Of a stretch of DNA of 27,300 bases, positions 1-27,300 are shown one piece after another. The notes under the pieces are model-generated. The model searched no databases, was not told the DNA's origin, and saw nothing but the letters and a program-made list of their open reading frames with translations. The DNA comes from a virus (taxonomy: Duplodnaviria > Caudoviricetes), in the IMG/VR virus record IMGVR_UViG_3300037424_000823, positions 1 to 27,300 of that record; one strand, written 5' to 3'. Position 1 is the stretch's first letter, and the number at the start of each line of letters is the position of its first letter. The position numbers and the translations under genes are program-made.

Positions 1-164
1 ATTTTTCCAGTTGCAGTTTGGTAAACACCTTCTGTCCAAGAATCTTCAACAGCTTTAATAATAGTATTTTGTTTTGCTTCGCCTAAGCGAATGTTACCTT
101 TATTTTCAGTAGTGAAAAATTGAAATCCACCTGCACCATGTTGTTGTTTTACTAAATTTTTCAT
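1..164 (-). CDS. Hypothetical protein, partial (runs off the left edge)
   Basis: Read by hand: ATG at 164, open frame MKNLVKQQHGAGGFQFFTTENKG... to the window edge, 17 bp after the stop of the upstream gene. Confidence 0.55.
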   Translation of the reverse strand, partial: MKNLVKQQHGAGGFQFFTTENKGNIRLGEAKQNTIIKAVEDSWTEGVYQTATGK

Positions 165-181
165 CTTTTTTAGTTTTTTAG

Positions 182-589: not shown

Positions 590-774
590 TATCTATTTGT
601 TTTAAATCCTATATAAAGATAATACCTTTTTAAGTACATTGTACTAAAATTAGTAATTATTTTTAGTTTGTAAGTGTTTGATAATTAAATTGATATAAAA
701 TATAATGAAAATATTTATTGTTTTTAACATAATATAACATGAAAAGACGTCATTTTTTTGGTTGTTGAGTAAAT

Positions 775-807
775 AAAATAAAAAACCCGGGACAATTATA
801 TCCCGGG
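775..807 (-). terminator. Rho-independent terminator after the lysis module
   Basis: Hairpin CCCGGGA-N8-TCCCGGG (786-807) followed on the minus strand by a T-rich tract. Confidence 0.75.
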
Positions 808-834
808 GAAACCCTAAACTTATGAAAAAAACAC

Positions 835-1335
835 TTAAACCAACTTTCGCCTACTAATGTAAAACAAAAAAGAGACAACTGCAAATAAAATAATAAATAT
901 GAATGAGATGTTTCGATGCAATTTAACCTTAATCAAAAGCTTTTCATTATCTTTTTTTAACTTTTCGTTTACAGGATTAACCTTTGCAACATCTTTTGTT
1001 TTTAATGTTTGAATAGTCCTGTTTAATATAGCAATAGAATCGACAAAAGCAGACAATTTTAAGACATTATCCTTAAAGACAACCTTTGTTTCAACTCCTT
1101 TACTTTTAGTCTCATTTAAGCGCTTTAAAAGAACCTGGTTATTTGAGTCGCATTCAAACATCAATTCAAGATTGATTGAATCAGGAACTGTATAGACGAT
1201 TGAATCATAAATTGTTTGTACATCTGTTATTTTTACAGTATCGGCTGGGAAACATTCCGAGTGTTTTGCAACATAATTGCACGGCGAACAAGCCATCAGC
1301 AATAATATTGAAAAAATAGTTATTACTTTTATCAT
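835..1335 (-). CDS. Lipoprotein with C-terminal TM helix; probable unimolecular spanin
   Basis: N-terminal lipoprotein signal (MIKVITIFSILLLMA-C), C-terminal hydrophobic helix plus basic tail, directly after the endolysin. Confidence 0.6.
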   Translation of the reverse strand: MIKVITIFSILLLMACSPCNYVAKHSECFPADTVKITDVQTIYDSIVYTVPDSINLELMFECDSNNQVLLKRLNETKSKGVETKVVFKDNVLKLSAFVDSIAILNRTIQTLKTKDVAKVNPVNEKLKKDNEKLLIKVKLHRNISFIFIILFAVVSFLFYISRRKLV

Positions 1336-1345
1336 AATCGCAAAT

Positions 1346-1879
1346 TTAATCTCGTGGATGAATGAACCCCAACAAATTTAGTCCTGTTTTTACTTTTGCA
1401 AAATCAACTTTTCGCTTTAGATTTGCAAACTCAATACCCTCTCTACCTCCATGTGAATTGGAATTACCCTCTATTGTTACAATTGAGGAAAAATCTGGAT
1501 ATACAACCTCGACAATTCCAGCATGTCCGGTCCATTGTGGAATGAAATCCTTATATTTTTGCCAAATAACTATTGACCCAACAACCGGCATTTGTGATGT
1601 ATACCAATCATTTGACCGTTTGAAGTTATTAAAAGTCTGAACAGCGGAACCTGTCATTAATTTGTTGAGTTCATCGTGATAGGTTGCATCGTATTTCTGA
1701 TACGATTCCAACCATATCATTTTAGCTGCAAAAGCACACCAAGGGTCTGGAACCGCCCAACCGATTGCTTTCATTTTACGTTCTGTTTCTGGGTTTTCAA
1801 AGCCCCCATTAGTTAGCTTTTCTTTTTCCCCGATGTATGGCCTTGCGGTGGTAATTATTATTTGTCTTATCGAACTCAT
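1346..1879 (-). CDS. Endolysin, CHAP-domain amidase/peptidase
   Basis: CHAP motifs PWCA, GHAGIVE and TIEGN; lies in the lysis cluster. Confidence 0.8.
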   Translation of the reverse strand: MSSIRQIIITTARPYIGEKEKLTNGGFENPETERKMKAIGWAVPDPWCAFAAKMIWLESYQKYDATYHDELNKLMTGSAVQTFNNFKRSNDWYTSQMPVVGSIVIWQKYKDFIPQWTGHAGIVEVVYPDFSSIVTIEGNSNSHGGREGIEFANLKRKVDFAKVKTGLNLLGFIHPRD

Positions 1880-2082
1880 TTTTCCATGGGTTTTTGGCCT
1901 AATTTCAAACCAATAAAAACACCGGTCATGGCTGTAAAAAGTGCAATGACTTCCCCGGTTGCAGGTTTAATTCCTGAAAAAGTATAAAAAGCAGTAAAAA
2001 ACATAACGTAAATAATGCCGATAAAAAAAATCATTCTGGTCGAACTACTTTGTCCGTTTTTTTCCTTAAAAAAAGTATTCAT
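1876..2082 (-). CDS. Putative holin (2 TM helices)
   Basis: 68 aa, two hydrophobic segments after SSTR, stop overlaps the endolysin start. Confidence 0.6.
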   Translation of the reverse strand: MNTFFKEKNGQSSSTRMIFFIGIIYVMFFTAFYTFSGIKPATGEVIALFTAMTGVFIGLKLGQKPMEK

Positions 2083-2084
2083 AG

Positions 2085-2390
2085 TTATAATTTTAAATTA
2101 AAAATAAGAGCAGTTAAAGGTATTGTAATTCCAAATATAATAGAAATAACCTTAATCATTTGATATTTTTTTTCTTGCATTTTCACTTTTAACTTTTCCG
2201 TCACATCAAATTCGATTTGAGATTTAGCCAATGATGCCAAACTGGTAGCCATTGAAGAGATGCTTTCTTTTATTTCTCGAACCTCTAATTTTATAACTTC
2301 AACTTCTGTTATTAGTCCTAGTTTATCGTTTCCATAAACAGCTTTATTTAGCTTTTCGATGTCATATTTAGACTCGCAAGGTGTCGTCAT
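2085..2390 (-). CDS. Coiled-coil protein with C-terminal TM helix (holin/antiholin-like, lysis module)
   Basis: Heptad-like central region, hydrophobic C-terminus, position next to the holin candidate. Confidence 0.45.
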   Translation of the reverse strand: MTTPCESKYDIEKLNKAVYGNDKLGLITEVEVIKLEVREIKESISSMATSLASLAKSQIEFDVTEKLKVKMQEKKYQMIKVISIIFGITIPLTALIFNLKL

Positions 2391-2404
2391 TTGTTTAAAT
2401 ATTA

Positions 2405-2692
2405 TCAGTTAAAATAAAATTTATTTTTATGTTTATGTCTTTTCATCATTTTGTTTAACAGATAGTTTGTAGCAATCGATGTAATCACACACGAAATAAA
2501 AAAAACATCTTTGTTTGCTGGTGTCTTAAATTCTGGCCTGATATAATTCAATGTAATTGGGGCTGCCATAATAAAAGACGGAACGTAGATTTCCGGGTGC
2601 GATTGAATGCGATAATCAATTTTTTTTGCCATCTGTGAATAGCTGGTTAAACTGAACAAAACCAATCCGATAATAATAATTAGGTTTTTCAT
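2405..2692 (-). CDS. Hypothetical membrane/exported protein
   Basis: Signal peptide-like MKNLIIIIGLVLFSLTSYS-Q followed by further hydrophobic segments. Confidence 0.55.
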   Translation of the reverse strand: MKNLIIIIGLVLFSLTSYSQMAKKIDYRIQSHPEIYVPSFIMAAPITLNYIRPEFKTPANKDVFFISCVITSIATNYLLNKMMKRHKHKNKFYFN

Positions 2693-2705
2693 AGTTTTTT
2701 TTATT

Positions 2706-2713
2706 CAAATTTA
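2706..2713 (-). promoter_or_regulatory. Bacteroidota-type -7 promoter element upstream of the lysis module
   Basis: TAAATTTG on the minus strand (TAnnTTTG consensus), 13 bp upstream of the 2692 start. Confidence 0.4.
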
Positions 2714-2795
2714 ACCTTTTATATATTGAATTACAATATGTTATTTAACACTATTCATTTGCAGGGTCATTATTGTAATAACACCACGCCCTCGA

Positions 2796-3536
2796 TTAAT
2801 TAATTGAATATGAACACAATCCGACAGTAAGACAAGCAGTATAAATAAATGTACCGTCACCCCAAACTCCATAATAACCATTGCCCGCTTGAAAATCAGC
2901 ATCTATAAAAGTTAAAACACCACTGCCATCAACAGAATAAGTGCGAATACCACTTTCCATACAAGCAGTATAAATAAATGTACCGTCACCCCAAACATTA
3001 TAATAATTACCGCCCGCTTGAAAATCAGCATCTATAAAAGTTAAAACACCACTGCCATCAACAGAATAAGTGCGAATACCACTTCCCATACAAGCAGTAT
3101 AAATAAATGTACCGTCACCCCAAACTCCATAATAATCACCGCCCGCTTGAAAATCAGCATCTATAAAAGTTAAAACACCACTGCCATCAACGGAATAAGT
3201 GCGAAGCCCGCTTGCATAACAAGCAGTATAAATAAATGTACCGTCACCCCAAACATTATAATAATCACCGCCCGCTTGAAAATCAGCATCTATAAAAGTT
3301 AAAACACCACTGCCATCAACGGAATAAGTGCGAAGCCCGCTACCTTGACAAGCAGCATAAATAAATGTACCGTCACCCCAAACTCTATAATAACCATAGC
3401 CCGCTTGAAAATCGGAATCAAGAAAGGTTAATGTTCCATGCGTAACCGATGAATACTGGTTTTGCCCAAAAAACATTTGCCCGTTAGAAATTAACGAAGC
3501 AAAAACAACTGAAATTATCAATAAAATTCGTTTCAT
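2796..3536 (-). CDS. Exported 43-aa tandem-repeat protein (LVIVD-like beta-propeller)
   Basis: Probable start at 3536 (MKRILLIISVVFASLISNG-Q). Five copies of VWGDGTFIYxAC..SG.RTYSVDGSGVLTFIDADFQAG resemble LVIVD propeller blades. Confidence 0.65.
   Translation of the reverse strand: MKRILLIISVVFASLISNGQMFFGQNQYSSVTHGTLTFLDSDFQAGYGYYRVWGDGTFIYAACQGSGLRTYSVDGSGVLTFIDADFQAGGDYYNVWGDGTFIYTACYASGLRTYSVDGSGVLTFIDADFQAGGDYYGVWGDGTFIYTACMGSGIRTYSVDGSGVLTFIDADFQAGGNYYNVWGDGTFIYTACMESGIRTYSVDGSGVLTFIDADFQAGNGYYGVWGDGTFIYTACLTVGLCSYSIN
2832..3430. repeat. 129-bp intragenic tandem repeat, about 4.6 near-identical copies
   Basis: ACAAGCAG(T/C)ATAAATAAATGTACCGTCACCCCAAAC starts at 2832, 2961, 3090, 3219 and 3348 (period exactly 129). 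Confidence 0.95.
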
Positions 3537-3537
3537 A

Positions 3538-5490
3538 TTAATTGTAGTTTTTACCGTAAGTAATAAATAACGTAGTTCCATCATACGTATAGCTCAATAT
3601 ATCTACTGAATTTGCAGCCGTACTTAACGTCACAACTCCTGAACCCCCATTGATTACTTTAGGTGTTGGGGAAATGGTTATTGTCCTGCTTCCAGTTGCA
3701 TCTTGTGTTATGATAATATTGCCTTCGTCACCACTAGTCAGGTTTGATAAGGTCAGCGTTGCATTATGACCTAGCGTTAATTCAGCATTAATCCCTGAGC
3801 TTACGTCCATTGCGATACTGGCCGAACTGGTAAGCGTTTGATAAACTTTAGTACGTCCGATTGCATACCCGGAAGTAAGGCTAAATACCCCTGTTGTGTT
3901 TGTGTATGTCAATCCCGTTGCCGTTGAGCTTAAATCAGTCAACGTAATGAGTGCGCCTATTGAATCATGTATAGTGTTTTTGACAGTATAAAAATCCGGG
4001 ATAGACAAATCAACGTAGTCCGCGTAGTGTTCGCTGTACATAAGCCCTCTTCTGCTTCCTGCAAGTCTATAATCAACAATAACCATATTTGTGTCGTGGA
4101 AATAGATATTTCCTATTCCTTTAAATTCGAGTTTAGCAACGTAGGGGCTTAATGTTAAGTTACTCCACTTTTCTAATAAATCTCCGTGATATGATGTTAG
4201 TGATATTCCTGCCCCTACGTTATGATTAAAATCTGACCCGTCAATGACAGCAAACCCCCCGCTTGTTTCTCCACTATTACGCCCTAAATTGAAACTTATA
4301 CTGCCGTTTGCCCGGTCGTAAAAATACGTACCTCCGCCTCCAACATCATTAAATTCAATCCCACCACCTCCGTAGTCTGTAAAAGTCATCCCATTATCTG
4401 TCTTAACATAAACGCCATTTAATTTTGATGCAACAGTTCCTAAAGTCAACTCGTACCCACCAATAATTGTTGCATCAGCCGTTAACGTTCCCCCTAAATT
4501 AGTCGAATAGCCTGAAACCGTTGTTCCTGAACCGTTTAACAAAACAGGTATGGAATCGTGAATTAATGATTTAACCTCGGTAAAATTAGGTATAGTATCA
4601 CCTCGAACGTAGAAGTTTGACATTGAACGAACAGTTCCTGAAACGTCTAATGTATATGATGGCAAGGTTGTTCCAATTCCAACGTTACCACTGCCTAAGA
4701 TAGTCATCTTAGTTTCCATCGGTTGCAACGTTTTTCCCGTTGTACCAGTTGTACCAGTTTGAAACAAAATATTACTCGTTCCGTTTCCAGTTCCTAACCC
4801 GGCTTGTAAAATTAAACAGCCACCTACTACGTTATCGATAGATGTGCCTTCAATTGTTGACCCAGCCGCAACGGTTAAATCTCGTCCAACTACGTCTGTT
4901 GCTGAATTTTCTACCCAGAACTTTTGCCATGACGAGCTACCTAACGATAGCGTGTTTGTCGGTGTTGCAGTCCCTATACCTACTTTACTCTGTACTATGG
5001 CAGAATAATTCTGATAAGCGTTTGCTGAATATCCAACCTTTATTGCTGAAACGTTTATACCATAAGATTCAACTGCGACACCATTTCCATAGCCTTTGAA
5101 CCCCCCACTAACGACAGTTCCATCTACTTTTATGATATAGTTTGACCCAACTCCGCTATGGTAAACGTTTAATGGTGCGCTAGGATTAGTTATACCAACT
5201 CCAACGTTTCCGTCATTGTAATAGATAGACGTTCCACTTTTCGTCCAATAATCTGTTTCATAAGCGTAGTGTTTAATAAGATTAACCACCGTAGTATCTC
5301 GAACAAGCAAATCGTTGTTAATTGAGAACCCACTCAAATTATTATAGCTTTCAACATACGTTGACCCAATCGTTGTCTTTAGTGTATCACCTCGATAACT
5401 TTGAATCAACGTTTGATAAGGTAATCGGCCTTGGCTCATTCCTATAATTGAAATAAGCCCTAAAACTGATATTAAAATTAGTCTTTTCAT
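3538..5490 (-). CDS. Tail fibre/receptor-binding-like protein with N-terminal signal peptide
   Basis: Repeated GNVG(I/V)GxTxP motifs, Gly/Thr/Ser rich, C-terminal IITQDATGSRT...STAANSVDILSYTYDG module; distal tail position. Confidence 0.6.
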   Translation of the reverse strand: MKRLILISVLGLISIIGMSQGRLPYQTLIQSYRGDTLKTTIGSTYVESYNNLSGFSINNDLLVRDTTVVNLIKHYAYETDYWTKSGTSIYYNDGNVGVGITNPSAPLNVYHSGVGSNYIIKVDGTVVSGGFKGYGNGVAVESYGINVSAIKVGYSANAYQNYSAIVQSKVGIGTATPTNTLSLGSSSWQKFWVENSATDVVGRDLTVAAGSTIEGTSIDNVVGGCLILQAGLGTGNGTSNILFQTGTTGTTGKTLQPMETKMTILGSGNVGIGTTLPSYTLDVSGTVRSMSNFYVRGDTIPNFTEVKSLIHDSIPVLLNGSGTTVSGYSTNLGGTLTADATIIGGYELTLGTVASKLNGVYVKTDNGMTFTDYGGGGIEFNDVGGGGTYFYDRANGSISFNLGRNSGETSGGFAVIDGSDFNHNVGAGISLTSYHGDLLEKWSNLTLSPYVAKLEFKGIGNIYFHDTNMVIVDYRLAGSRRGLMYSEHYADYVDLSIPDFYTVKNTIHDSIGALITLTDLSSTATGLTYTNTTGVFSLTSGYAIGRTKVYQTLTSSASIAMDVSSGINAELTLGHNATLTLSNLTSGDEGNIIITQDATGSRTITISPTPKVINGGSGVVTLSTAANSVDILSYTYDGTTLFITYGKNYN

Positions 5491-10319: not shown

Positions 10320-13225
10320 CTGCTCATTCGTTCGTGTCTCTTAATATAACGAGAATCGTATCGATTTATAATATTAATTGTAGGTTCGTTCTTTTTATCA
10401 ACTAATTTGTCAAGATTTAGCACCATTTTATCTAATCTTTTTTCAATTCCACCGTTACCGTTCATCGTTATATCATTGTAGATAGCTGAATTTAACAATC
10501 GTTGTGTTTCTTGTGCTGTGCTAATCTTTTCTCCTCCCTGCAAATTAACCAATTGTTTATTTTCTGCTAAATATGCGCTACCGTCTTTAGATTCAATCAA
10601 CTCTGCCCCTCGCTCGGCAATCCACGCCAATCCAGCAGGGGCATTTTCTGTCCCTTTAAAGAATCCAGGGACTTCTGGTAAAGGTTCAGAGGCTATAACT
10701 CCTGCTGCTAATAATGACGAACCTAATAAAAAAGCCAATTGTCCATAAGCCATCGCAATTACAGGAGCGTAAATAACTGGGCCAGCGGGTCCTAATATTG
10801 TAGATGCTGCACTTGCTGCTGCTATACTTGCTTTTATTTCTAAAGCTCGCTGTGTTGTTGTTATTGCTAAATTGAACAATGCCTGATTCCTTTCAGACTT
10901 TGCTTGTTCGCGCTCTATTTGAGCTTCTTTTATAGCTAATTCTCGTGATAATTTTTCTTGCAAATCAGAATTACCCTCTGCCGCGGTTATTTTAGCATTG
11001 TAATTAGACCGAATTCCTTCGAGTTCCCTGTCTCTCTGTGATTGCCCTAAATCAAATATAGTGTTTACAATTTCAGCACTTTGATTGAAGTAGTCATTCT
11101 CAATATCATGAATCTGTTGCGCGGCATTTTTTTTTGCTTCTCTTATTTTATCTTGTAATTTTAATTCCTTGTCTGCTGAATCTTCAATTTTTTTATCATG
11201 CTCAGCAATTATATCATTGATATAATCTTGTGTATTCTTTTCTATTTTTTTCTTTTTATCAGCAACATCTTGTCTTAATTTTATTTCCTTTTCTTGCTGT
11301 AAAACAAACCAGTTATAATTTAATTCATTGTCTATTTTTTCTGGATTAACCCTAATTGAACTTTCTGTATCTTTTTTTGGTTTAATATTTGAAATAATAG
11401 TCTTGCTCCCGTTTAATAAATCAATATATAATTGCAGAGATTTAACTTCTGCTTCCCAATAAAACGATTCTTGAACATTTGTATCCGCCGTATCTTCAAC
11501 AAACTTTTTATATTTAATTAGTTTTTCATTTTGTTTATCTAATTCAGATGTTAACATTTCGCTTCTTATTCTTTCAGCCTCTTCGAGTGACGTAACAGAT
11601 TTAACGGCTTCATTTACCGATTCATTATAATACTTAAATGCATCATCAGCCTCTTTTGTCGCTTTAATATCTGCTCTTTCTAATTCAGTTAAATTTAATT
11701 TAGTCAACCAATCAATCAATGAAGTTACGTTTTGTGTTATATTTCTAAAAACACGACTAATAGTGCCTTGCCCTTTATCTAATCCTAATATAAATGTTTC
11801 CCATTTAACAGATAATTTAGTAATATCACCAGCTAAATTATCATTTTGAATTGATTGTTGTTCAAAAGCCGTATTGGTTCCTGTTACCGCTTTTGTCAAT
11901 TCATTAAACTTATCCTTATTTTCAATAATAATCTGCCCTACCGTAATGTTTTCAGCTCCAAATATTTTAGATAAATATGCATCTTTTTCTAAATTTGAAC
12001 CCATTGTCGCTAATTTTGAATTAACTTCATCAATTGCATCATTAAGATTAAATTGACCACTTGCATATCCTAATCCAGCTTGTTTTAATTTTAAAAGCGA
12101 TCCTCTTAATTTTGTTCCAGCTTCTGCTCCTTTTATCTGTTTTTCACCTAAAACCTCAATTAATGCGACCGTTTGTTCAAGAGTTAAATTTGAACTTTTG
12201 GCAACTGTTCCAGCATTTTTAAATGATTCAGTCAAATCAGCAACATTTGAACTTCCAACCAGCGATCCAGCCGCCAAAACATTGATTATATCTTTTGATT
12301 TAGATGCTGGTAATTCAAATTGATTCATGGCGGCTGTCAATGCGTCAACAGAACCTTCAAGTGCTAATTTTCCGCCAGTTGCTTCTGATAAAATAATAGC
12401 TTGTTCGGTTACATCTGCTAATGCTTTTTTATTTTTTAACAAAATAGGGGCCGCTGATCCTACTTTTTCATAGGCTTTTACAATATCTGTTGCGGATTGG
12501 AGTGTTTTGCCCGAGGTTTTAATTGCCGCGGCTCCATAATAAATCATATCTAACGTCGATGCCCCTGTAATTGCTTTTAATGAACTCATTGCCGAGCCAA
12601 ATTCTTTTACAGTGCTCATTACATTTTTAACAACACTAACAGCAGACCTGAATGTTAAAAATGCGGCTCCTGCTGCAATTGCAGACTTAATAATTGCACC
12701 AAAATATCCACCTACTTTTCTTTGATGTTGACCTAAACTACCATCAATGTTTTTTAACTCTTTCCCGTATTTATTTGCTTCTAAGGCTGCTTTTTTTGCT
12801 TCTGTTGAATTAATCCCATATTGGGCGGCCAAGGTTTTTGCGGTTTTAATCGCTTGCTTATGCTTTAATTCTAATTGTTTATACGCATCATCTTCCGCTT
12901 TAATCTGATCTGTATATGCTTTTTTTGCTTCACGTTCTTTTATTGTAGATTTAGTCAGTTCTTTTAATGAAGTATCTTGAGCTGCAATTAATTTGTTTCG
13001 CTGATTTAATAATGTTTCCCCTTCTTTTTCGATTAAATTTTGTGCTGATTTTGTTTTGTTAAGATTTTCGTTTGTATCAGTCAAACCCTTTACTGAGTTA
13101 AGCTCTTTCGTTGATGTTTTCTGTAGCTCAATAATAACTTTGATGCGTTCAGCAGTTTCTTGAAGTGAAGCATTTAATTTATCAACTTCTCCAATCGTTT
13201 TATTAATATCGATGTTATTTGCCAT
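10316..13225 (-). CDS. Tail tape measure protein (TP901-family core)
   Basis: 969 aa, helical and Ala-rich. Core motifs FGSAMSSLKAITGA, INVLAAGS and IKGAEAGTKLR; C-terminal FKGT...AWIAERGAELI. Confidence 0.9.
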   Translation of the reverse strand: MANNIDINKTIGEVDKLNASLQETAERIKVIIELQKTSTKELNSVKGLTDTNENLNKTKSAQNLIEKEGETLLNQRNKLIAAQDTSLKELTKSTIKEREAKKAYTDQIKAEDDAYKQLELKHKQAIKTAKTLAAQYGINSTEAKKAALEANKYGKELKNIDGSLGQHQRKVGGYFGAIIKSAIAAGAAFLTFRSAVSVVKNVMSTVKEFGSAMSSLKAITGASTLDMIYYGAAAIKTSGKTLQSATDIVKAYEKVGSAAPILLKNKKALADVTEQAIILSEATGGKLALEGSVDALTAAMNQFELPASKSKDIINVLAAGSLVGSSNVADLTESFKNAGTVAKSSNLTLEQTVALIEVLGEKQIKGAEAGTKLRGSLLKLKQAGLGYASGQFNLNDAIDEVNSKLATMGSNLEKDAYLSKIFGAENITVGQIIIENKDKFNELTKAVTGTNTAFEQQSIQNDNLAGDITKLSVKWETFILGLDKGQGTISRVFRNITQNVTSLIDWLTKLNLTELERADIKATKEADDAFKYYNESVNEAVKSVTSLEEAERIRSEMLTSELDKQNEKLIKYKKFVEDTADTNVQESFYWEAEVKSLQLYIDLLNGSKTIISNIKPKKDTESSIRVNPEKIDNELNYNWFVLQQEKEIKLRQDVADKKKKIEKNTQDYINDIIAEHDKKIEDSADKELKLQDKIREAKKNAAQQIHDIENDYFNQSAEIVNTIFDLGQSQRDRELEGIRSNYNAKITAAEGNSDLQEKLSRELAIKEAQIEREQAKSERNQALFNLAITTTQRALEIKASIAAASAASTILGPAGPVIYAPVIAMAYGQLAFLLGSSLLAAGVIASEPLPEVPGFFKGTENAPAGLAWIAERGAELIESKDGSAYLAENKQLVNLQGGEKISTAQETQRLLNSAIYNDITMNGNGGIEKRLDKMVLNLDKLVDKKNEPTINIINRYDSRYIKRHERMSR

Positions 13226-14426: not shown

Positions 14427-15317
14427 CTAAGCGATTGTTACCGTTGCGGCAATACCTTCATAGTATTCAGAGCCAACAGTTACCACATCAGCTAAATTAA
14501 TAGTCCCAGTCACTAATGCTGTTCCGGCCAATGTATATCTGCCTGGAATTGTCGTGCTTTCAGTTACAGAGCTTATTGTTTGAGCACTTGAATCTGATGC
14601 TTTTAATAATTCAAATTCAGCAGGTAATGTTAATCCTTCGATTGCAGACCCGTCCTCGTTGTTTAATACGTCAACAATTATTTCAGTTGCGGTTGGAGTT
14701 CCAACAACCTCAATTGCTGCCTGTTGAACACCATTTAATCCTTTAATGTTCCAATCGACTTTGAATGTTGCAATATTTTCGTTTGTTTCAAATGCCGATT
14801 CCGACATGAATGTAATAATTGTAAAAGACAGATTTGATCCATCTGAGGGTTTCCACTTCTCAACTCGCAAAGTGCCAGAACTCCATCCCTTGAATTTTAA
14901 TACATCTTTTGTGCCAATTACATTATTAACAGCGTCAACTTGAATTAATCTCATTGTCTTTCCATTAATTCCAGCTCGCAATCTGGCATGTAATGCAGGG
15001 TTAAATTTAATCATGTATTTAAACCCATGTTTCCCTTCACGAACAAAAGTTCGCAGCGAGGTTATCGGAGATGTGTAATAAGTGTCTTCTTCACTTTCAT
15101 TTGAAAATTCTTCAACAAGTGGAAGTGGAAACAGTGTTTTTGCTGTAATTGCCGATACCCAATCGGCTAAAGTTTGCGCGGATGAAATAGTATCGAATTC
15201 AAACGCTTCATCAGTAAGAAATATCTTTTCTGCTGCACCAATTTGTACATCAGCGCGAGGACTAATCCCAGTCGTGAGATTTGCGTCCGAAAGTTCAAAT
15301 CTGTTGTAATCTGCCAT
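14427..15317 (-). CDS. Major tail (tube) protein
   Basis: 296 aa, acidic and beta-rich, with an Ig-like Thr/Val-rich C-terminus; lies between head-tail genes and the tape measure. Confidence 0.65.
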   Translation of the reverse strand: MADYNRFELSDANLTTGISPRADVQIGAAEKIFLTDEAFEFDTISSAQTLADWVSAITAKTLFPLPLVEEFSNESEEDTYYTSPITSLRTFVREGKHGFKYMIKFNPALHARLRAGINGKTMRLIQVDAVNNVIGTKDVLKFKGWSSGTLRVEKWKPSDGSNLSFTIITFMSESAFETNENIATFKVDWNIKGLNGVQQAAIEVVGTPTATEIIVDVLNNEDGSAIEGLTLPAEFELLKASDSSAQTISSVTESTTIPGRYTLAGTALVTGTINLADVVTVGSEYYEGIAATVTIA

Positions 15318-21160: not shown

Positions 21161-22540
21161 TTATTCATTAAACAATCCGTAATATTTTTCTAAGTGTTCA
21201 AATCCTAACGTGATTGAATCGGGGGCATCATCTTCTTTGCTCGCTATTTTTACTATTCGATAACATTGATCTAAAAAGTTGAGGGTTTCTTTGTTTGGTT
21301 TTTCGGGTACATGTAGATATTTCGATACAAGCCCAGAATAAACGTTAATTCTAGCCATTTTGTTTGAACTATTCCATTTACCGAAAACGTCCATATTTGG
21401 CATCAATGTAATAAGCCTATTTTTAAAATAATTGCCTACATGGTTTGTCTCAATAACTATCAATTTAACATTGTGTTCCTTGCATTTCAAGCGGACTATT
21501 TCTTCCTGCTCTATTATTTGGTCAGGGCTAAATATAACATCAAGCAAATAGATATTGATGCCAACTATCTGGACTATCGGCGCTGAAAAAAGGTCGCTAC
21601 CTTTATCGGCGGTATCAATGAACATAGCTGCCCATCCTTGGTTTATTATTGATTCTTTGCCGTTTTCATTAATCAACTCTTTAGGAAGTTCACTGTAAGT
21701 CTTGAATTTATTTGGATAAACAAGCCCCTCAATAGCCATAGGCGATTGCATGTATTCGGAATTCCAAATGAATTTAGCTATTTTGTCACGGATTTTCAAA
21801 TATTCATCTGTGCTTTTAACATATTCGCAAAATGAATGTTCATCAATTAATGCTGGGATTATGATTGATTTGTAAAGTAAACCTGAATCCATTTCAGTTC
21901 CGATAATATCATCTTTTACCCATCTCGTTCCGATAAATATTTCCGGGCAGTTTTTTTCTTTTCGGCTATCGTGTGCCGATTCTTTCCAAAGCTTCACAGA
22001 TGTGTTTGTTGTTTGTGACAAAGCATCTTGCATGGATTTATAAAGGTCATCAGTAATTGCTATGTTTGCTCCGAATCCTATAATAGTACCGCCAACCCCG
22101 CTGCCAAAATAGCCTACCTGTTTTGATGTTTCTAAATTCCAACCGTCAAGATTCTGCTTGTCTCCCTGCATTTTTATCTCAGGAAATACCTCTTTGAATT
22201 TTATTGATTTGATTATGTTTCGAGTGTCGTAACTAAACTTTTGATACAATGTTGATGTGCAGGAATTTCGCATTACCGATAATTCAGGAAACTTCGCTAA
22301 CCAAAAAGCGGCAAATAATGAGGTTATGTAAGATTTTCCAGCTCGTGGCGGCATTGATACGGATACGCTTATTGCAATTCCATTTTTATAATTGTCGATT
22401 ACTTCTTGAAACAATATAGCAACCTCTTTTAAAAATCGCCTTTTAACTCTAAAAAAATCCTCATCGTAATAAACACAAAACGCCCAAAAATTTGAGCGTG
22501 CAAGTGATATTGAAATCGGATTATCTTTAAAGGTTTTCAA
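21161..22540 (-). CDS. terL: Terminase large subunit
   Basis: Walker A-like MPPRAGKS, Walker B ITDD, GTRW, YMQSP, and nuclease motifs IDTA and DDAPDS. Confidence 0.92.
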   Translation of the reverse strand: MKTFKDNPISISLARSNFWAFCVYYDEDFFRVKRRFLKEVAILFQEVIDNYKNGIAISVSVSMPPRAGKSYITSLFAAFWLAKFPELSVMRNSCTSTLYQKFSYDTRNIIKSIKFKEVFPEIKMQGDKQNLDGWNLETSKQVGYFGSGVGGTIIGFGANIAITDDLYKSMQDALSQTTNTSVKLWKESAHDSRKEKNCPEIFIGTRWVKDDIIGTEMDSGLLYKSIIIPALIDEHSFCEYVKSTDEYLKIRDKIAKFIWNSEYMQSPMAIEGLVYPNKFKTYSELPKELINENGKESIINQGWAAMFIDTADKGSDLFSAPIVQIVGINIYLLDVIFSPDQIIEQEEIVRLKCKEHNVKLIVIETNHVGNYFKNRLITLMPNMDVFGKWNSSNKMARINVYSGLVSKYLHVPEKPNKETLNFLDQCYRIVKIASKEDDAPDSITLGFEHLEKYYGLFNE

Positions 22541-22931
22541 TTGCTTTATCTATTTGTTTCTTTGTTAAATTTAAGGGTGTTGTTTTTATTTCTCCTGAAT
22601 GTTCATATTTTTGGTCAGGTTTACCGATTCCCCTATCCAGTATCTTTTCTATAACGTCAAAACCTTTGCCTCCCAAAATAGCTTTTCCAACTATCCTAAT
22701 CAAAGCAGGTTGAGTGCCATCTTTTACTTTTGCTTCAAGTTCTGGTATTGGGATTTGTACTAACCTTAGATAGCAGGAAATTATATCGTTTTTGGTAGCC
22801 TCGGTATATCCAAGCCCTTCTAGTTCGATATTGACGGCTGAAATGGTTTTCCTGTTAGCCCCTGTTTTGTTGATGTTTTGGGGGTTTTTATCAAATCCTT
22901 TGCCTTTTATTTTGTCTGGATTACCTCGCAT
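22527..22931 (-). CDS. terS: Terminase small subunit
   Basis: GFDKNPQNINKTG N-terminus and LDRGIGKP...EHSGEI C-terminus; overlaps the terL start. Confidence 0.7.
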   Translation of the reverse strand: MRGNPDKIKGKGFDKNPQNINKTGANRKTISAVNIELEGLGYTEATKNDIISCYLRLVQIPIPELEAKVKDGTQPALIRIVGKAILGGKGFDVIEKILDRGIGKPDQKYEHSGEIKTTPLNLTKKQIDKAIENL

Positions 22932-22999: not shown

Positions 23000-23101
23000 A
23001 CTATTTTTTGAATAAAACACCATTTTTGTAACTATTTAATTGTTAGTTGATTAGTCAACTTTGCTCAGTGGGTGGATACCTTGTTTTTAAATTTTTATAA
23101 T

Positions 23102-23332
23102 TTAAGCAAATTTAGTGAATTTCTTCCTTATAATGACAAAAATACAATTAAATGGGACCTCAAAAATATTATAAATCTGTTTTCTTATATCAATAATATT
23201 ACAATCTATTGAACAATTAGCAATCAGTTTACCATTATTTTTAATGTCTGACGAATTCAATAATTTTGATAATTCATTCATTTTTGAAAATGAAGCATTA
23301 TTTGTTAAAATAATAACTTTAGTGAGTATCAT
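23102..23332 (-). CDS. Hypothetical protein
   Basis: 76-aa ORF, very AT-rich, no recognised motif. Confidence 0.4.
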   Translation of the reverse strand: MILTKVIILTNNASFSKMNELSKLLNSSDIKNNGKLIANCSIDCNIIDIRKQIYNIFEVPFNCIFVIIRKKFTKFA

Positions 23333-23418
23333 AGTTTTATATTATCATTTATAATACATATACATCTATTTTAAACGGGAATAGTATGGTTTTGTCATAC
23401 ATAGCAGAGAGTTATGCC

Positions 23419-23847
23419 TCATGCTAAAATAGCTCCGTGCATTATGACAAAATACAATTTGTTTGGCTCTGCTCCCCATTCAGAATTGCCAGTTCTTATT
23501 TCAATCCCTTTGTGTTCGAGTTTCAAAATTCGTTCAGTATCTCCATTTTTAGGATAACCTAATGTCATTATGTTAACTTCAAACTTTTTAGCCATTAACA
23601 TTTTCCATTCATTAGGTGGGGCTAAAATATCATTTAGACTATCGGATAAGTTTCGGTAACACTCTCCACATTGGACAAGTCTTTTCCACCAGTATTGATT
23701 TATCTCTCTGTAATCCTCTGTTTTTATGCCAGCTTTAGTCATTTCAAACCATTTAGTTTTTAGCGAAAGACGTAAGCACGAAGGCATAACCGCACCTATA
23801 CGCAAAATGGGGGTTTCGTTCTCGTTGGATAGTATTTCTGTGTTCAT
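23419..23847 (-). CDS. ASCH/PUA-like domain protein (cassette 1)
   Basis: LRLSLKTKWFEMTKAGIKTEDYRE matches the ASCH-type L.h...wf..h..G.K..E.R signature. Confidence 0.65.
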   Translation of the reverse strand: MNTEILSNENETPILRIGAVMPSCLRLSLKTKWFEMTKAGIKTEDYREINQYWWKRLVQCGECYRNLSDSLNDILAPPNEWKMLMAKKFEVNIMTLGYPKNGDTERILKLEHKGIEIRTGNSEWGAEPNKLYFVIMHGAILA

Positions 23848-23918
23848 AATTTCGTTATTCGTTTAAGTTTTGTGGATGCAATCCCCATTCAGCGCATAGC
23901 TGCAACACGTTATAAGCC
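23783..23918 (+). repeat. attC-like site 1
   Basis: GGCATAAC...GCACCTATACGCAAAATGGGG / CCCCATTCAGCGCATAGCTGC (17/21 paired)...GTTATAAGCC. Confidence 0.8.
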
Positions 23919-23921
23919 ATA

Positions 23922-24062
23922 TTAAGACGGCTTCGATTTAGAATTTTCGACAAGTTTTTTAAGTTCGTCCTGAATAAAGTTTTTTAGGTCTTTATCTTGG
24001 TCAATAGCCAGCTTTTTTAAGTCTTTAACTATTTCGTCCGATATGTCTATTACTTTACGCAT
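23922..24062 (-). CDS. Ribbon-helix-helix-like DNA-binding protein, 46 aa (cassette 2), absent from the ORF track
   Basis: MRKVIDISDEIVKDLKKLAIDQDKDLKNFIQDELKKLVENSKSKPS has the CopG/Arc-like strand-helix-helix pattern. Confidence 0.65.
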   Translation of the reverse strand: MRKVIDISDEIVKDLKKLAIDQDKDLKNFIQDELKKLVENSKSKPS

Positions 24063-24227
24063 TTATTTAATGGTTGTATGTGAAACATTTGCTAATGGGA
24101 ACATTTTTACAGTTTTTACAAAATGTTCCGCTTTTTTAACTTTTATTTCAAATCTATTATCCACTAATCTAACAATTGCGGAAATTCCTTCCGATTTTAA
24201 TTGTTCTCTTACTTCAATTGTACTCAT
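24063..24227 (-). CDS. Small hypothetical protein, 54 aa (cassette 2), absent from the ORF track
   Basis: MSTIEVREQLKSEGISAIVRLVDNRFEIKVKK...; its TAA abuts the ATG of the RHH-like gene. Confidence 0.6.
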   Translation of the reverse strand: MSTIEVREQLKSEGISAIVRLVDNRFEIKVKKAEHFVKTVKMFPLANVSHTTIK

Positions 24228-24348
24228 AATCGTGTGTTTTATTTGTTATTAATTATGAAGTAAAGATATACTATATATATGATATATACAAGTAAAAAGC
24301 GATTTATTTTTAAATTATTTTTCTTTCAATTGATAATCAAATAAATAC

Positions 24349-24483
24349 GGCTTATAACACCGTATATAAAAAATAGCGGGTTTAGTGCCGTTTGCAAGGT
24401 TCGTACTCGTATTATCTGTTATCATAGCTTGATAGTTTTTCGCTTCGTAGTCCGCTACTTTTCATATACGAAACGTTGGGTGC
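24349..24483 (+). repeat. attC-like site 2
   Basis: GGCTTATAAC-AC-CGTATATAAAAAATAGCGG / CCGCTACTTTTCATATACG-AAAC-GTTGGGTGC (17/19 paired). Confidence 0.85.
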
Positions 24484-24510
24484 AAGCATAAGAACCTGCC
24501 CCGTTCAAAC

Positions 24511-24732
24511 TTAGTTACTTGGTTTAGTTTCCAAGCTCGCCAAAACTTCCATTGGAACAATATCGGATGAATGTTTCCAATACTTATTTCCGTTCATATT
24601 TTGGATTTTAACCCAATTACCACTTGGAGAAATTTCGAGAATTTTAATTTCTTCAACTGTTTGTTTTGAATTGTAACCACGTTCTTTTTCGGCTACCAAT
24701 ACTCTTTTGTGTAAAAATTCGCTTAAATTCAT
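24511..24732 (-). CDS. Hypothetical protein, small beta-barrel-like (cassette 3)
   Basis: 73-aa ORF filling the unit between sites 2 and 3. Confidence 0.7.
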   Translation of the reverse strand: MNLSEFLHKRVLVAEKERGYNSKQTVEEIKILEISPSGNWVKIQNMNGNKYWKHSSDIVPMEVLASLETKPSN

Positions 24733-24755
24733 TGTTTTATGTTTTAAAAATGCCA

Positions 24756-24888
24756 GCCCCTAACAATGTATACAGCAAATTGGGGGTTGTTTACAAGTTG
24801 CTACATTCGCACTATTTATTTAGTTTCTACAAGTTGATAGGTTCGTGCGTTCTATCCCCCAACTTGCCATATACTTAACGTTAGGCGT
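24756..24888 (+). repeat. attC-like site 3
   Basis: GCCCCTAAC-AAT-GTATACAGCAAATTGGGGG / CCCCCAACTTGCCATATAC-TTAAC-GTTAGGCGT (16/19 paired). Confidence 0.85.
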
Positions 24889-25348
24889 AATAAAAACCAC
24901 GTTCACCAATCCAGTGCAATTCTTTAATGTCTAATATTTCAAATTCAATTGGATTAGTAGTGATAATAATATTATCATCCATAGGCTTTGAATTAAGCCA
25001 ATAACTCGGACAATTTCTGTTACTTGTATGTACATTCAACTTAAATCCACATACTATTTTAGTCCCTGAATCTTTAAGTTTTCGCCAAAGCAAATTCATT
25101 AATGATTTATCCTCATTTTCTGAACTTAAAAAATATAAATCGCTATCATTGTATTTCACGAAATCATGTAGTTCTATCAATGGTACATCTATCATTTTTT
25201 CTTTGCCATTTTTTAAGTCCTTAAATTTGACTTGTACCGTTTGTTTTTCGTAATAATCTAAAGGCATATTTTCATCCTTTATATTTTCATAGTAGTAATC
25301 CATTTGGCTTACTTCATATTTTCCTATTCTATTTGACCAACCGCCCAT
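24881..25348 (-). CDS. Hypothetical protein (cassette 4)
   Basis: Fills the unit between sites 3 and 4. ATG at 25348 (TTG at 25357 is an alternative); the stop codon overlaps the GTTA core of site 3. Confidence 0.7.
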   Translation of the reverse strand: MGGWSNRIGKYEVSQMDYYYENIKDENMPLDYYEKQTVQVKFKDLKNGKEKMIDVPLIELHDFVKYNDSDLYFLSSENEDKSLMNLLWRKLKDSGTKIVCGFKLNVHTSNRNCPSYWLNSKPMDDNIIITTNPIEFEILDIKELHWIGERGFYYA

Positions 25349-25362
25349 GATTAACAATTTAC

Positions 25363-25498
25363 TACGCCTAACACATGCTATAAAAAATAGCGGTTTTAGT
25401 GGTTTGCGTAAGGTTTATACTACTATTTATCTTTACTATATTTTGATAGTTTTGTTCCTCGATTTCCGCTACTTTTCATAGCATCAACGTTGTAGGTA
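25363..25498 (+). repeat. attC-like site 4
   Basis: TACGCCTAAC-AC-ATGCTATAAAAAATAGCGG / CCGCTACTTTTCATAGCAT-CAAC-GTTGTAGGTA (17/19 paired). Confidence 0.85.
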
Positions 25499-25502
25499 AT
25501 AG

Positions 25503-25781
25503 CTATTCAGGGTTAAGTTCCTTAAATAACTTATCTATGTTTTCGGGTTTTGTAAATAAATCATTGACCCCAGTCAGCACTCTTACAACTGTATATAATG
25601 CTCGTAGGTAGTCAGCTCTATCATTGAAGTAAATTGCGGAAACTGCTGCATTGAGTGCTTCCTTACTTGCATCGCTACTACCTACAACACCAAATAAAAC
25701 AAATAGCCTGTCTTTAGCTTCTTGTTTGCTTATTTCGTGCTTGCAAAGCTTATCTATAATCGAATCTATTTTCTTTTCCAT
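25503..25781 (-). CDS. Hypothetical protein (cassette 5), N-terminus encoded within site 5
   Basis: 92-aa ORF whose ATG at 25781 lies in the loop of site 5. Confidence 0.65.
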   Translation of the reverse strand: MEKKIDSIIDKLCKHEISKQEAKDRLFVLFGVVGSSDASKEALNAAVSAIYFNDRADYLRALYTVVRVLTGVNDLFTKPENIDKLFKELNPE

Positions 25782-25817
25782 ACGGCTACTGTTTTTATTT
25801 ATGGAAACGTTAGTAGC
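25679..25817 (+). repeat. attC-like site 5
   Basis: TACCTACAAC-ACC-AAATAAAACAAATAGCC / GGCTACTGTTTTTATTT-ATGGAAAC-GTTAGTAGC; less regular stem than the others. Confidence 0.75.
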
Positions 25818-25904
25818 AAGCGGGGAAAAGTGCTTCGATTCAAACTTTCTGCGTAATTGAAAGAAAAAATAAAAGCCCCACCCACTTTGCTTTTTTCAAA
25901 AGCA

Positions 25905-26123
25905 TTAGGTTTTTAACTCCTGTGCTTTATTTAAGTACCATTGTTCTTTTGCTAAATCCTGTTTTACATCGTCCTTATGTCCAAGCCTCATTCTATATTT
26001 AAAAGCATTCATTAGGCAAAAATCAATAGCTTTTTCTTTGCCCCAAATTGCCACCATCATATCAATAACCTCAATAGGATATTGGTTATAATGTTTTGGA
26101 TGGTTTACTTTTTCTTCGCTCAT
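25905..26123 (-). CDS. DUF3310-like protein (SaV / T7 gp1.7 nucleotide-kinase-like) (cassette 6)
   Basis: VNHPKHY...IEVID...N..KY..R.G.K....DL.K..WYL family signature; probable start MSEEK at 26123. Confidence 0.8.
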   Translation of the reverse strand: MSEEKVNHPKHYNQYPIEVIDMMVAIWGKEKAIDFCLMNAFKYRMRLGHKDDVKQDLAKEQWYLNKAQELKT

Positions 26124-26124
26124 A

Positions 26125-26796
26125 TTAGTAAGTAATATCGTTAAACACAACGGGAATAATTGCTTTCAATTCATCCAAAAGTGGACACATCAATTCACGC
26201 ATTTGCGGGTGTGCTACTTTTGCGGTTCGTTGTTTAAAAATGGTTCTCCACTCTCTAATATTAGCGGTTACAACTATTTCCGTTTTTAAAGAGTTTGGCA
26301 AAACTGAACGAGCTTGTTGTGGTTGCCATCCAAGTTTTGAAAGTAAATTATAAGCCTGTTCACTTTCTGAAATTGAAGCATACCATGCTTTTGTTGTATC
26401 TTCAACTTGCATGTAATTCTTTTCATTCATTCTTTGCACCAATTTAATTTGCTCATCACTTATCCAAAGCGGTTGAATAAATGTAATTTTGCTTTCAAAT
26501 TTGTCTTTTGCATAGTTGCAATATCTTGTACTTTCCTGTGAAAAACTTGCAATTCTATGTCTTACAATTTCGTGAGAAACTCCACGGTCGCAAACAAATA
26601 AAATGCTTATTTTTTCGTGCTCTAAAACGCTTTCGTGTCCACGTTCCACAAGCATTTTAATAAACTTTTCTGCACTTTCGTCTGTTATTTGGTCTTCACT
26701 CTTATAACAAGTACGCCCAGCACGTTCAATGCTTTTTAGCATTTCTTTACCGTCAAATTTTGACAGGATTTCATAACTCTGTTTAATAATTTTCAT
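26125..26796 (-). CDS. thyX: Flavin-dependent thymidylate synthase (cassette 6)
   Basis: GHESVLEH, RGVSHEIVRHRIASFSQESTRY (ThyX RHRX7S motif) and ARSVLP; probable start MKIIKQ at 26796. Confidence 0.95.
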   Translation of the reverse strand: MKIIKQSYEILSKFDGKEMLKSIERAGRTCYKSEDQITDESAEKFIKMLVERGHESVLEHEKISILFVCDRGVSHEIVRHRIASFSQESTRYCNYAKDKFESKITFIQPLWISDEQIKLVQRMNEKNYMQVEDTTKAWYASISESEQAYNLLSKLGWQPQQARSVLPNSLKTEIVVTANIREWRTIFKQRTAKVAHPQMRELMCPLLDELKAIIPVVFNDITY

Positions 26797-26878
26797 ATAA
26801 TTTGTTTTAAAAAAAATTGCCCACACTTCGCTTTTATTTTTTGTGCTTCGAGTTGGGGTAGTGGGTTTAAATCCGCCA

Positions 26879-26975
26879 GCTACTAACACAGTGTATAGCA
26901 AATAAGCCATTAAAGTTTGTACTAAATTGATAGTTTTGTGCGTGGCTTACTTGCCATACACTCAACGTTAGCCAC
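26879..26975 (+). repeat. attC-like site 6
   Basis: GCTACTAAC-AC-AGTGTATAGCAAATAAGCCA / TGGCTTACTTGCCATACACT-CAAC-GTTAGCCAC (two mismatches). Confidence 0.85.
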
Positions 26976-26979
26976 CATA

Positions 26980-27165
26980 TTAAGAAGCCTTCGAGCGTTT
27001 CTTTAGGTGTTGATTAATCCAAAAAGCAAACAACCCAGAAATATTTTGATTACCGAGTAGTTCTTTGCTTTTTCGATTGTATAATCGGATAGCTTTTCAA
27101 CTGCAATTCGTTTTTCAACCCAATTTTTTGCACTTACTTTTAGATTTTTGTTTAGTCTTGTTCAT
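26980..27165 (-). pseudogene. Possible frameshifted small gene in cassette 7
   Basis: An RHH-sized protein (M-TRLNKNLKVSAKNWVEK...IEKAK-ELLGNQNISGLF...KAS*) can be read only by allowing two single-base frameshifts. Confidence 0.25.
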
Positions 27166-27300
27166 TTTTTTTAATAAAGTTTAATAAAATGTTTCAAAAT
27201 AAGTCCTTTCAAAAACTTCATCAAAAAGACTATATTTTTTAGTCATCTTATTTCTGAACATTATTGCACTAGAATAATCAAAAAACAAATGAACTTTTTT

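Follow-up and report, generated by a model that had tools for sequence, protein, structure and literature searches.

Organization of the locus

The window, that is, the whole analysed stretch of 27,300 nt, is a tailed-phage contig in which six units and their hairpins form a cassette array directly upstream of the terminase genes. The portal, capsid and tape measure genes come after the terminase and complete a phage head and tail module, and the terminase genes share their reading direction with the cassette genes. Genome matches to the hairpin motif are labelled Bacteroidota in 20 of 23 cases, and the phage host is likely a member of this group. The features are as follows; hairpins are given without strand.

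21161-22540, minus strand: terminase large subunit (phrog_38, E 3e-62)
22527-22931, minus strand: likely terminase small subunit (label inferred from position)
23395..23425, plus strand: landing site (attI-like array end), GTT at 23411-23413, no hairpin on its left
23411..23790, plus strand: unit 1, 380 nt, ends pair at 9/15
23419..23847, minus strand: ASCH-like phage protein (phrog_625, E 2e-24)
23788..23911: hairpin 1, AAC...CGTT, 124 nt, by folding
23909..24358, plus strand: unit 2, 450 nt, ends pair at 14/15
24063-24227 and 23922-24062, minus strand: two small ORFs, the unit 2 cargo (ORF list)
24356..24477: hairpin 2, 122 nt, by folding
24475..24764, plus strand: unit 3, 290 nt, ends pair at 11/15
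24511-24732, minus strand: unit 3 ORF, 73 aa, without family match
24762..24882: hairpin 3, 121 nt, folding z -3.0 on the minus strand
24880..25372, plus strand: unit 4, 493 nt, ends pair at 14/15
24881-25357, minus strand: unit 4 ORF, without family match, stop codon inside the left box
25370..25491: hairpin 4, 122 nt, by folding
25489..25688, plus strand: unit 5, 200 nt, ends pair at 14/15
25503-25781, minus strand: unit 5 ORF, start inside hairpin 5
25686..25811: hairpin 5, 126 nt, less regular than the other five
25809..26887, plus strand: unit 6, 1079 nt, ends pair at 13/15
26796 (likely start) to 26125 (stop), minus strand: ThyX in unit 6 (PF02511, E 4e-47)
25905-26150: DUF3310 protein in unit 6 (PF11753, E 2e-17)
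26885..26969: hairpin 6, 85 nt, folding z -2.6
26967..27300, plus strand: unit 7, incomplete at the contig end, start matching a closed 882-nt unit in locus L134

The main cargo ORFs of the window all read toward 23411. The Atlas neighbours of the ASCH-like protein carry the name ASCH (score 0.90-0.92); its frame starts within hairpin 1, and the next ATG sits in the box at 23787. None of the nine ORFs scanned with PADLOC matched, and a sigma-70 promoter scan, whose model does not include Bacteroidota promoters, remained at chance level. The rest of the window holds no further hairpins, a finder match at 11603-11731 being treated as chance.

A defined 15-bp box joins the two ends of each unit

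The initial annotation had described the two ends of each unit as reverse complements over 9-15 bp, and all six end pairs lie where it had placed them. The pairing is indeed longer than the 7 bp of the classical attC box, but it follows a defined 15-bp box rather than a loose range of lengths. The values of 9/9 and 10/10 that had been given for units 1 and 4 are their uninterrupted stretches. Permuted end pairings score worse: the observed start-to-end assignment is the single best of 720, with 57 matches at 15 nt against a permutation mean of 28, and it keeps this rank at 9, 12, 15 and 20 nt with the GTT/AAC core left out. The flanks of the same hairpin match at 2-5 of 12 positions, so that, as had been noted, the bases outside the cores do not pair within one palindrome. 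The proposed folding of circularised junctions gave the same picture, since for each hairpin the junction folds best, out of seven possible starts, with the start of its own unit (6/6, on both strands), and the observed assignment ranks 1 of 5040. On the minus strand, the closed junction is 1.9-8.9 kcal/mol more stable than the linear junction. Five of the six left ends are set by hairpins, and thus only 23411 was picked by pairing.

Across 268 fetched loci and the window, 166 units have a detected hairpin on each side, and 104 of them are closed. The rate of matching is 0.73-0.79 over positions 5-9, drops to 0.05 at position 11, returns to 0.67-0.71 over positions 12-14 and is at background from position 16. 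An independent set, composed of loci fetched by recombinase and not by site sequence, contains 65 closed units among 91. Here, positions 12-15 match at 0.86, as compared to a permutation maximum of 0.53, while an invariant A (65/65 closed units) occupies position 11 and is unpaired, its complement occurring at the other end in 1/65. On the gene-coding strand this position is usually a G·T pair. Some of the unclosed units (62/166 and 26/91, respectively) are due to missed sites. Moreover, homologous units show compensatory changes, in L294 (unit 1) and in the families of units 2 and 7. A defined box with a conserved mismatch argues for a maintained arm rather than for a passive trace of variable length. 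Judged by its sequence, the box looks like the recombinase-binding arm of a folded single strand.

Structure of the hairpins

The six hairpins are imperfect, run from AAC to GTT and measure 85-126 nt. The minus strand, which is the gene-coding strand, folds better at 6/6 sites, and only two of the six linear sites are clearly better than shuffles (z below -2.5). At five of the six sites the stems are ungapped, 19-21 bp long and interrupted by 1:1 mismatches, while site 5 is irregular. The five regular sites have no extrahelical bases; the wider set is biased against bulged sites, because the finder requires ungapped stems and CGTT. An unpaired central spacer is asymmetric, with 1-4 extra nt on the GTT side. 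Rfam gave no match at gathering score in the window, nor in 13 array loci except for tRNAs, and the Flavo-1 RNA motif was rejected as a candidate, with no match up to E 10 within 23000-27300.

Units and hairpins change neighbours among related loci

Relatives of the units and hairpins recur in other contexts. A 71% homologue of unit 1 is the first cassette beside the recombinase in L294, with its compensatory box change, and a 91% copy of hairpin 1 lies beside other units in L174. Unit 2 is 87% identical over 450 nt to a unit in L064 that has different hairpins on both sides, and a ~90% copy of unit 5 is followed by another unit in sediment run X1. L147 contains a 627-nt unit with different cargo whose ends resemble both ~100-nt ends of unit 6 at 79%. 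Copies of hairpins 2 (88-94%) and 4 (88-91%) occur in other loci, and copies of hairpin 6 (95-96%) adjoin other units. As the initial annotation had proposed, the units behave as independent cassettes, and closing a circle restores their pairing; their insertion from circles is likely, although no excised or circular form was found among the joints, which come from contigs only.

The two borders of the hairpin differ in these comparisons, in which a common unit was judged on 85-nt flanks for most pairs. When two loci have a common right-hand unit, the hairpin is never common (0/20); when they have a common left-hand unit, it is replaced in 17/28 and kept in 11/28, including 3/3 pairs with left-hand units at least 97% identical. 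Counted by family, the hairpin on the AAC side is replaced in 10 of 21, kept in 10 and mixed in one. In the pairs with a common left unit, identity falls at the AAC from 0.89 to 0.55 (random 0.44). In 52 pairs, hairpins that are at least 90% identical are flanked left and right by unrelated units. Thus, the hairpin is no fixed part of the cassette and is often replaced at the AAC border. The crossover had been placed at G|TT, and relatives indeed show breaks at GTT; this does not follow from the end pairing, which cannot fix the crossover side because a circle with the left-hand hairpin folds equally well.

At the array start, the 20-kb backbone contig stops at 23414, and in contigs of run X1 the first GTTA is followed by three alternative sequences, at this same position. 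Units 3-4 are without contig cover in this run. With a profile built from 44 hairpin-less array ends, 23411 is the best of the 991 GTT sites in the window, but on a stricter profile of recombinase-adjacent sites it fails, ranking 844 of 1188. Its TACATA-to-GTT spacing is 7 nt, as compared to 5 nt in the consensus beside recombinases, and given this deviation 23411 may represent a secondary site or what is left of a hairpin. Terminase relatives were too distant (37 loci, 42-63% identity) to reveal an empty or alternative state of the site.

The first 107 nt of unit 7 are 99% identical to the closed unit in L134. The same 19-nt start occurs in 21 other distinct copies. Nine of these, L134 included, close with an end in GGTGGCTAAC, four have less than 600 nt available, and eight have no closing end within 2.5 kb. 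The lack of a closing end in 8 of the 17 copies with enough sequence counts against the model developed below.

A small Xer-like recombinase is linked to the hairpin family

The 27,300-nt contig has no recombinase by a Pfam and phage-family search, and five terminase-relative records (one complete) gave no match to the enzyme that is linked to arrays elsewhere. Related arrays adjoin a tyrosine recombinase of ~270 aa that is Xer-like. Hairpins lie within 1.5 kb upstream of it in 40/57 loci and within 1.5 kb downstream in 0/75, with none on the same strand, as compared to 2/37 terminase-anchored control loci (2 sites in 401 kb); these counts, from loci that include near-duplicates, represent an association. 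Among 65 flanking ORFs, three were recombinases according to Pfam. The enzymes of L156, L168 and L063 score 169.5, 152.6 and 111.3 on TIGR02249, against a cut-off of 265, and each in two stretches. The closest sequence is archaeal XerA (PDB 4a8e, 5hxy), which aligns in one stretch, while IntI4 aligns only in two pieces. A pattern search near arrays gave two candidates (L181 and L041), of which the L181 ORF did not look like a recombinase.

A close recombinase is present in 4/5 Bacteroidota genomes (best E 1e-64 to 1e-72). A convincing landing site was seen at just one of five host recombinase loci, L352 of Zobellia, where it precedes a 272-aa frame, and a host source of the enzyme is possible on these sequence matches.

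Comparison with integrons, phage CALINs and Xer systems

In integrons, the R' and R'' boxes at the cassette ends pair across the cassette as standard logic (PMC5027507). The array follows this logic in several respects (Nivina et al. 2016, PMC5027507): it is headed by a hairpin-less GTT site, its imperfect hairpins have an AAC/GTT core and resemble attC (57-141 nt), its outer box re-forms only between the two ends of the same cassette (6/6 units), one strand is favoured through G·T pairs, and in related loci the recombinase gene begins at a distance of ~50 nt from the landing site and reads in the opposite direction from it. However, the outer box is 15 bp with a fixed mismatch instead of the 7-bp GTTRRRY; fixed G·T pairs are found here and no extrahelical bases; and the hairpin precedes the gene, at times with its start codon, and is often replaced at the AAC border. 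The genes lie on the folded strand and read toward the landing site, whereas integron genes read away from attI. The recombinase is XerA-like, of ~270 aa, and below the IntI cut-off. The end pairing is therefore ordinary integron logic, but the geometry and the surrounding system are not.

CALINs have been reported in phages (Qi et al. 2023, PMC9892861), and like them the array has small hairpin-bounded genes in a phage without an integrase. Polaribacter phage P12002L carries sites of the same family, one of which had been called by HattCI (PMC9892861). Its unit around the methyltransferase gp35 (29237-30011) pairs at 13/15 with an unpaired A at position 11, and what had been published as two 'divergent attC sites' are the opposite ends of this single unit. 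The accessible text of PMC9892861 reads them as ordinary, divergent attC sites, without the 15-bp box, the reversed genes or a dedicated recombinase.

XerA proteins are, by sequence, the closest structural relatives of the array-linked recombinase. The landing motif and the 15-bp box span ~26 bp around the GTT, near the size of a dif site, which is 28 bp. Unlike in Xer systems, the landing site has as its partner a folded hairpin whose sequence varies, and there is no sign of a role in dimer resolution.

A model for the array and its alternatives

Taken together, the region is an array of units with a self-complementary 15-bp box and an AAC...GTT hairpin, which probably serves as an integron-like cassette store in a likely Bacteroidota phage. 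The anatomy, the changing neighbours and the association of the hairpins with the recombinase family are observed, whereas the circles, recombination through a single strand, the choice of this strand and the enzyme active here are inferred. The contig without a recombinase, the joints without a circular form, the atypical spacing at 23411, the unclosed units and the weak folding of four of the six linear sites weigh against this reading. A cassette would consist of a unit and the hairpin on its AAC side. In the circle, the gene-coding strand may fold into a rod, with the 15-bp box as one arm and the 19-21-bp stem as the other around the AAC/GTT core, and this strand would be distinguished by the fixed G·T pairs at position 11 of the box and at +10 and +15 of the stem. 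The enzyme would be a ~270-aa Xer-like recombinase acting in trans, encoded by the host, by a co-infecting phage or in a missing part of the genome. It would recombine the folded site with a landing site in double-stranded form, a GTT like that at 23411. Insertion would then split the box between the two ends of the unit, giving the pattern first noticed, and a less frequent exchange at the AAC border would provide a unit with a new hairpin.

The replaced hairpins could instead reflect two equally mobile modules, units and hairpins, with GTT and AAC as ordinary crossover points and no fixed cassette. Homologous units with unrelated hairpins on both sides, the replacements in pairs with a common left unit, the drop of identity at AAC, near-identical hairpins between unrelated units and the stable folding of left-hairpin circles all fit this reading. 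We nevertheless consider it unlikely, given the asymmetry between the AAC side, where the hairpin can be kept and is kept in all near-identical pairs, and the GTT side, where it never is. Furthermore, arrays start with a hairpin-less GTT site, and thus each insertion there must bring its right-hand hairpin. Classical integron cassettes in a CALIN, inserted in reverse by a host IntI, would account for the cores, the hairpin size, the asymmetric spacer and the G·T-rich strand, which are like those of attC (PMC5027507), and CALINs are reported from phages (PMC9892861). Against this, GTTRRRY fits 2/7 starts and RYYYAAC 1/6 ends, although AAC and GTT are present at all sites, extrahelical bases are missing, reversed genes are the rule (91/104 closed units on the opposite strand), the window has no IntI integrase, and the linked recombinases stay at 111-170 on TIGR02249. 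In addition, a hairpin of this family, assayed as P12002L_attC1, was the only one of six sites at which IntI1 gave no integration, although the delivered strand may have been wrong for this family. The classical integron reading is largely refuted and its probability very small.

A role of the hairpins as RNA elements (terminators, processing or translation signals), with the genes shuffled by homologous recombination between them, appears just as improbable. The better-folding strand is the mRNA strand, where the G·T pairs would be G·U, and several start codons sit in hairpins. However, covariation links unit ends that are 200-1079 nt apart and not the two sides of a single hairpin, the precise breakpoints at GTT and AAC and the link to a recombinase are left without explanation, and Rfam offers no match.

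Beyond the preferred reading of this array, it is conceivable, though we would not call it probable, that a second integron-like system, independent of IntI, operates in the Bacteroidota and in their phages. In it, a small Xer-type enzyme could cross over at either hairpin border, and units, hairpins (with leaders and start codons) and ~100-nt cargo frames would be reshuffled separately. Such a system would offer a visible route for ordinary phage genes, such as thyX and the ASCH-like gene, into cassettes, a step unexplained in classical integrons, and the replaced hairpins and the cargo within conserved frames bear on cassette origin. The 15-bp box with its fixed mismatch makes it possible to locate cassette borders precisely, and its mutation would test directly how one folded strand could be chosen by a tyrosine recombinase that lacks the IntI insertion.

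A literature search found no description of these arrays as a system, and a plasmid collection gave no hairpin match. The accessible text of the IntegronFinder 2.0 preprint reports very few integrons in surveys of Bacteroidetes; despite this, the site family is common in Bacteroidota phages and chromosomes, and a single strict site pattern recurs in an estimated ~500 stretches of the viral collection.

Layout of the phage and its array

The stretch carries two parts:

1-22931, - strand: tailed-phage morphogenesis module (terminase large subunit, portal, capsid, tape measure, endolysin)
23411 to contig end: cassette array

The main ORFs of the array all lie on the - strand and read toward the terminase genes. 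In other phages as well, an array end lies directly upstream of terminase genes (L214 8836-10493, L066 1145-2852). The host is likely to be a member of the Bacteroidota, given that 20 of 23 genome contigs with the motif taken from hairpins 2 and 4 are so labelled, and that homologues of the unit 1 gene occur in phages of Cellulophaga and Flavobacterium. A 10-hairpin array of the same family occupies positions 1-4943 of a contig (L044) from a genome labelled Methanolobus, which may be mis-binned. A 129-nt tandem repeat of ~6 copies (2703-3476), possibly a tail-fibre repeat, lies within ORF 2796-3584.

Pairing of the unit ends

The end pairing is real, and the array is integron-like. The analysis establishes its anatomy, the 15-bp box at the unit ends, the varying neighbours of the units and the association with a recombinase family; circular forms, recombination of a folded strand, the strand chosen and the source of the enzyme are putative. 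The initial annotation proposed that the two ends of each gene-bearing unit, running from GTT to AAC, pair with one another, and this is true for all six complete units. In a permutation test restricted to the bases beyond the GTT/AAC core, the observed assignment was the best of 720 at every length tried, and matching between the two flanks of one hairpin was at the chance level. When the circular junctions were folded against permuted ends, the unit's own start ranked first of seven for all six hairpins, on both strands. The further proposal, that this pairing reflects crossover at the core, stood only in part: the pairing is real, but a circle that includes the hairpin to the left of the unit is stabilized to the same extent, and the pairing therefore cannot locate the crossover. 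Of 21 other copies of the cut unit 7, which starts at 26967, 9 have the predicted closing end, the closest copy (L134) among them; 8 lacked closure and 4 were too short. The end of the unit 7 ORF (27010-27200) matches a 50-aa L134 protein over its last ~25 residues only; upstream of these the frame has no in-register start, and may be chimeric or frameshifted.

Among 166 distinct units between consecutive hairpins (268 loci and the window), 104 were closed, meaning that six or more of the seven bases at positions 4-10 of the 15-bp box formed by the unit ends matched. Matching was high through position 10, dropped to 0.05 at position 11, was regained at positions 12-15 and fell to background from position 16. 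Since many of the 268 loci had been gathered by site patterns, the box analysis was redone on loci gathered by recombinase only. There, 65 of 91 units were closed, and the left base at position 11 was A in all 65; its partner was non-complementary in 64, and was C on the + strand in 56, which amounts to a G·T pair in the - strand. The match at positions 12-15 was 0.86, as compared to at most 0.53 in 2000 permutations. The position-11 A is present in all six window units. We infer that a conserved mismatch within a covarying stem makes sense only in a folded single strand. The hairpin stems contain two further such pairs, at +10 in 61% and +15 in 91% of 513 hairpins, and lack bulged bases, although the hairpin finder used favours stems free of gaps. 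The - strand, the putative strand of choice, folds more stably than its complement at each of the six window sites, clearly beyond shuffles at only two.

Recombinase and landing sites

The contig contains no tyrosine recombinase. The 65 ORFs to the left of 86 candidate array ends include three that encode tyrosine recombinases, two of which start ~50 nt from the terminal GTT. A search with these recombinases provided 80 loci (the best 80 of 167). Of the 57 with enough sequence, 40 have hairpins within 1.5 kb upstream of the recombinase and on the strand opposite to it; none of 75 has hairpins within 1.5 kb downstream. The array-linked recombinases are ~270 aa long, score under the cut-off for IntI and have archaeal XerA as their closest match.

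The landing site is the hairpin-less GTT site heading an array. The 32 distinct recombinase-adjacent landing sites, derived from 33 loci chosen because a GTT box lies 50-56 nt upstream of the recombinase, read approximately TACATA, 5 nt, GTT. The window site at 23411 has a spacing of 7 nt instead of 5 and fails this profile; it tops a looser profile built from 44 hairpin-less array ends. Our interpretation is that the site is secondary and would be served in trans. In L352, a locus on a host chromosome, a landing site accompanies the compact recombinase. Two near-identical landing sites that lack a hairpin, at different positions and each with its own cassettes, occur in several phages: L062 (3492, 7766), L145, L214 and L215.

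Mobility of the units

In the single sequencing run holding the stretch, from sediment, a 20,061-nt contig stops exactly at GTTA 23411-23414, and three contigs extend from one 30-mer, into unit 1 of the window and two other sequences. These contigs, which cover 73% of the run, possibly the one from which the window derives, show branching and say nothing of linkage or frequency; no circular form was found among them. Unit 2 recurs in another locus (L064) at 87% over all 450 nt, with other neighbours on its sides. In L294, a homologue of unit 1 is the first cassette beside the recombinase, with a compensatory change in its box. The unit 1 gene is also found boxless in phages phi39:1 and FL-1, in phi39:1 upstream of the terminase.

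New cargo appears to enter existing cassette frames. The two ~100-nt ends of unit 6 (25809-25913, 26791-26887) are 79% like those of a 627-nt unit in L147 (878-1504), which carries an unrelated ~160-aa ORF, and the families of units 2 and 7 have common ends around differing middles. The frames of units 1 and 5 begin inside the upstream hairpin (23788-23847, 25689-25781); over its first 27 residues, the unit 1 frame has 78% identity with a frame of the corresponding L174 hairpin, which precedes another unit.

Among 498 distinct sites, the hairpin was common to none of the 20 pairs (8 families) sharing the right-hand unit only, and was kept in 11 and different in 17 of the 28 pairs (21 families) sharing the left-hand unit only. 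For most pairs, unit sharing was scored from 85-nt flanks, and pairs of the same family are not independent observations. At 97% or above, left-unit-sharing pairs kept the hairpin in 3 of 3. The absence of shared hairpins in right-unit pairs, as compared to 11 of 28 in left-unit pairs, indicates that the usual travelling piece is a unit with its AAC-side hairpin, with crossover at GTT, as in integrons when the array is read along the + strand.

Hairpin replacement at the AAC border is nevertheless common. At AAC itself, identity drops from 0.89 to 0.55 (random 0.44), one 492-nt unit occurs in five copies with five different right hairpins, and 52 pairs of hairpins with 90% identity or more are flanked on either side by unrelated units. 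A simple route would be that the other strand occasionally recombines at AAC, so that a unit leaves together with the hairpin on its left, and that normal insertion then puts this hairpin on the right. Nivina et al. (PMC5027507) show that recombination of the top strand, which is infrequent, cuts in the other R box.

Comparison with integrons

The array probably works like an integron, but departs from one with respect to integrase, 7-bp consensus, extrahelical bases and the orientation of the genes, which is reversed in 91 of the 104 closed units. The IntegronFinder 2.0 preprint names a single complete integron in Bacteroidetes. Full-text searches of the openly available literature found no description of the cassette system.

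The primers of Qi et al., mapped to the genome of the Polaribacter phage P12002L (L358), place their two sites, published as divergent attC sites, at the two ends of one unit of the window's site family. At 29237 this unit has a GTT site lacking a hairpin, and at 30009 a short hairpin begins; the ends of the unit pair at 13 of 15 positions, with an unpaired A at position 11. In that paper (PMC9892861), P12002L attC1 is the only one of six sites not integrated by IntI1. It is the true hairpin of the two published sites. The strand delivered as its bottom strand is probably the one that would be inactive here, and the failure of IntI1 on attC1 is therefore suggestive only. As a cultured phage, P12002L could be a test system. 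It carries at least six sites of the family, including 14503-14624, 30009-30056, 32224-32280 and 38036-39244, and several of its sites flank DNA methyltransferase genes.
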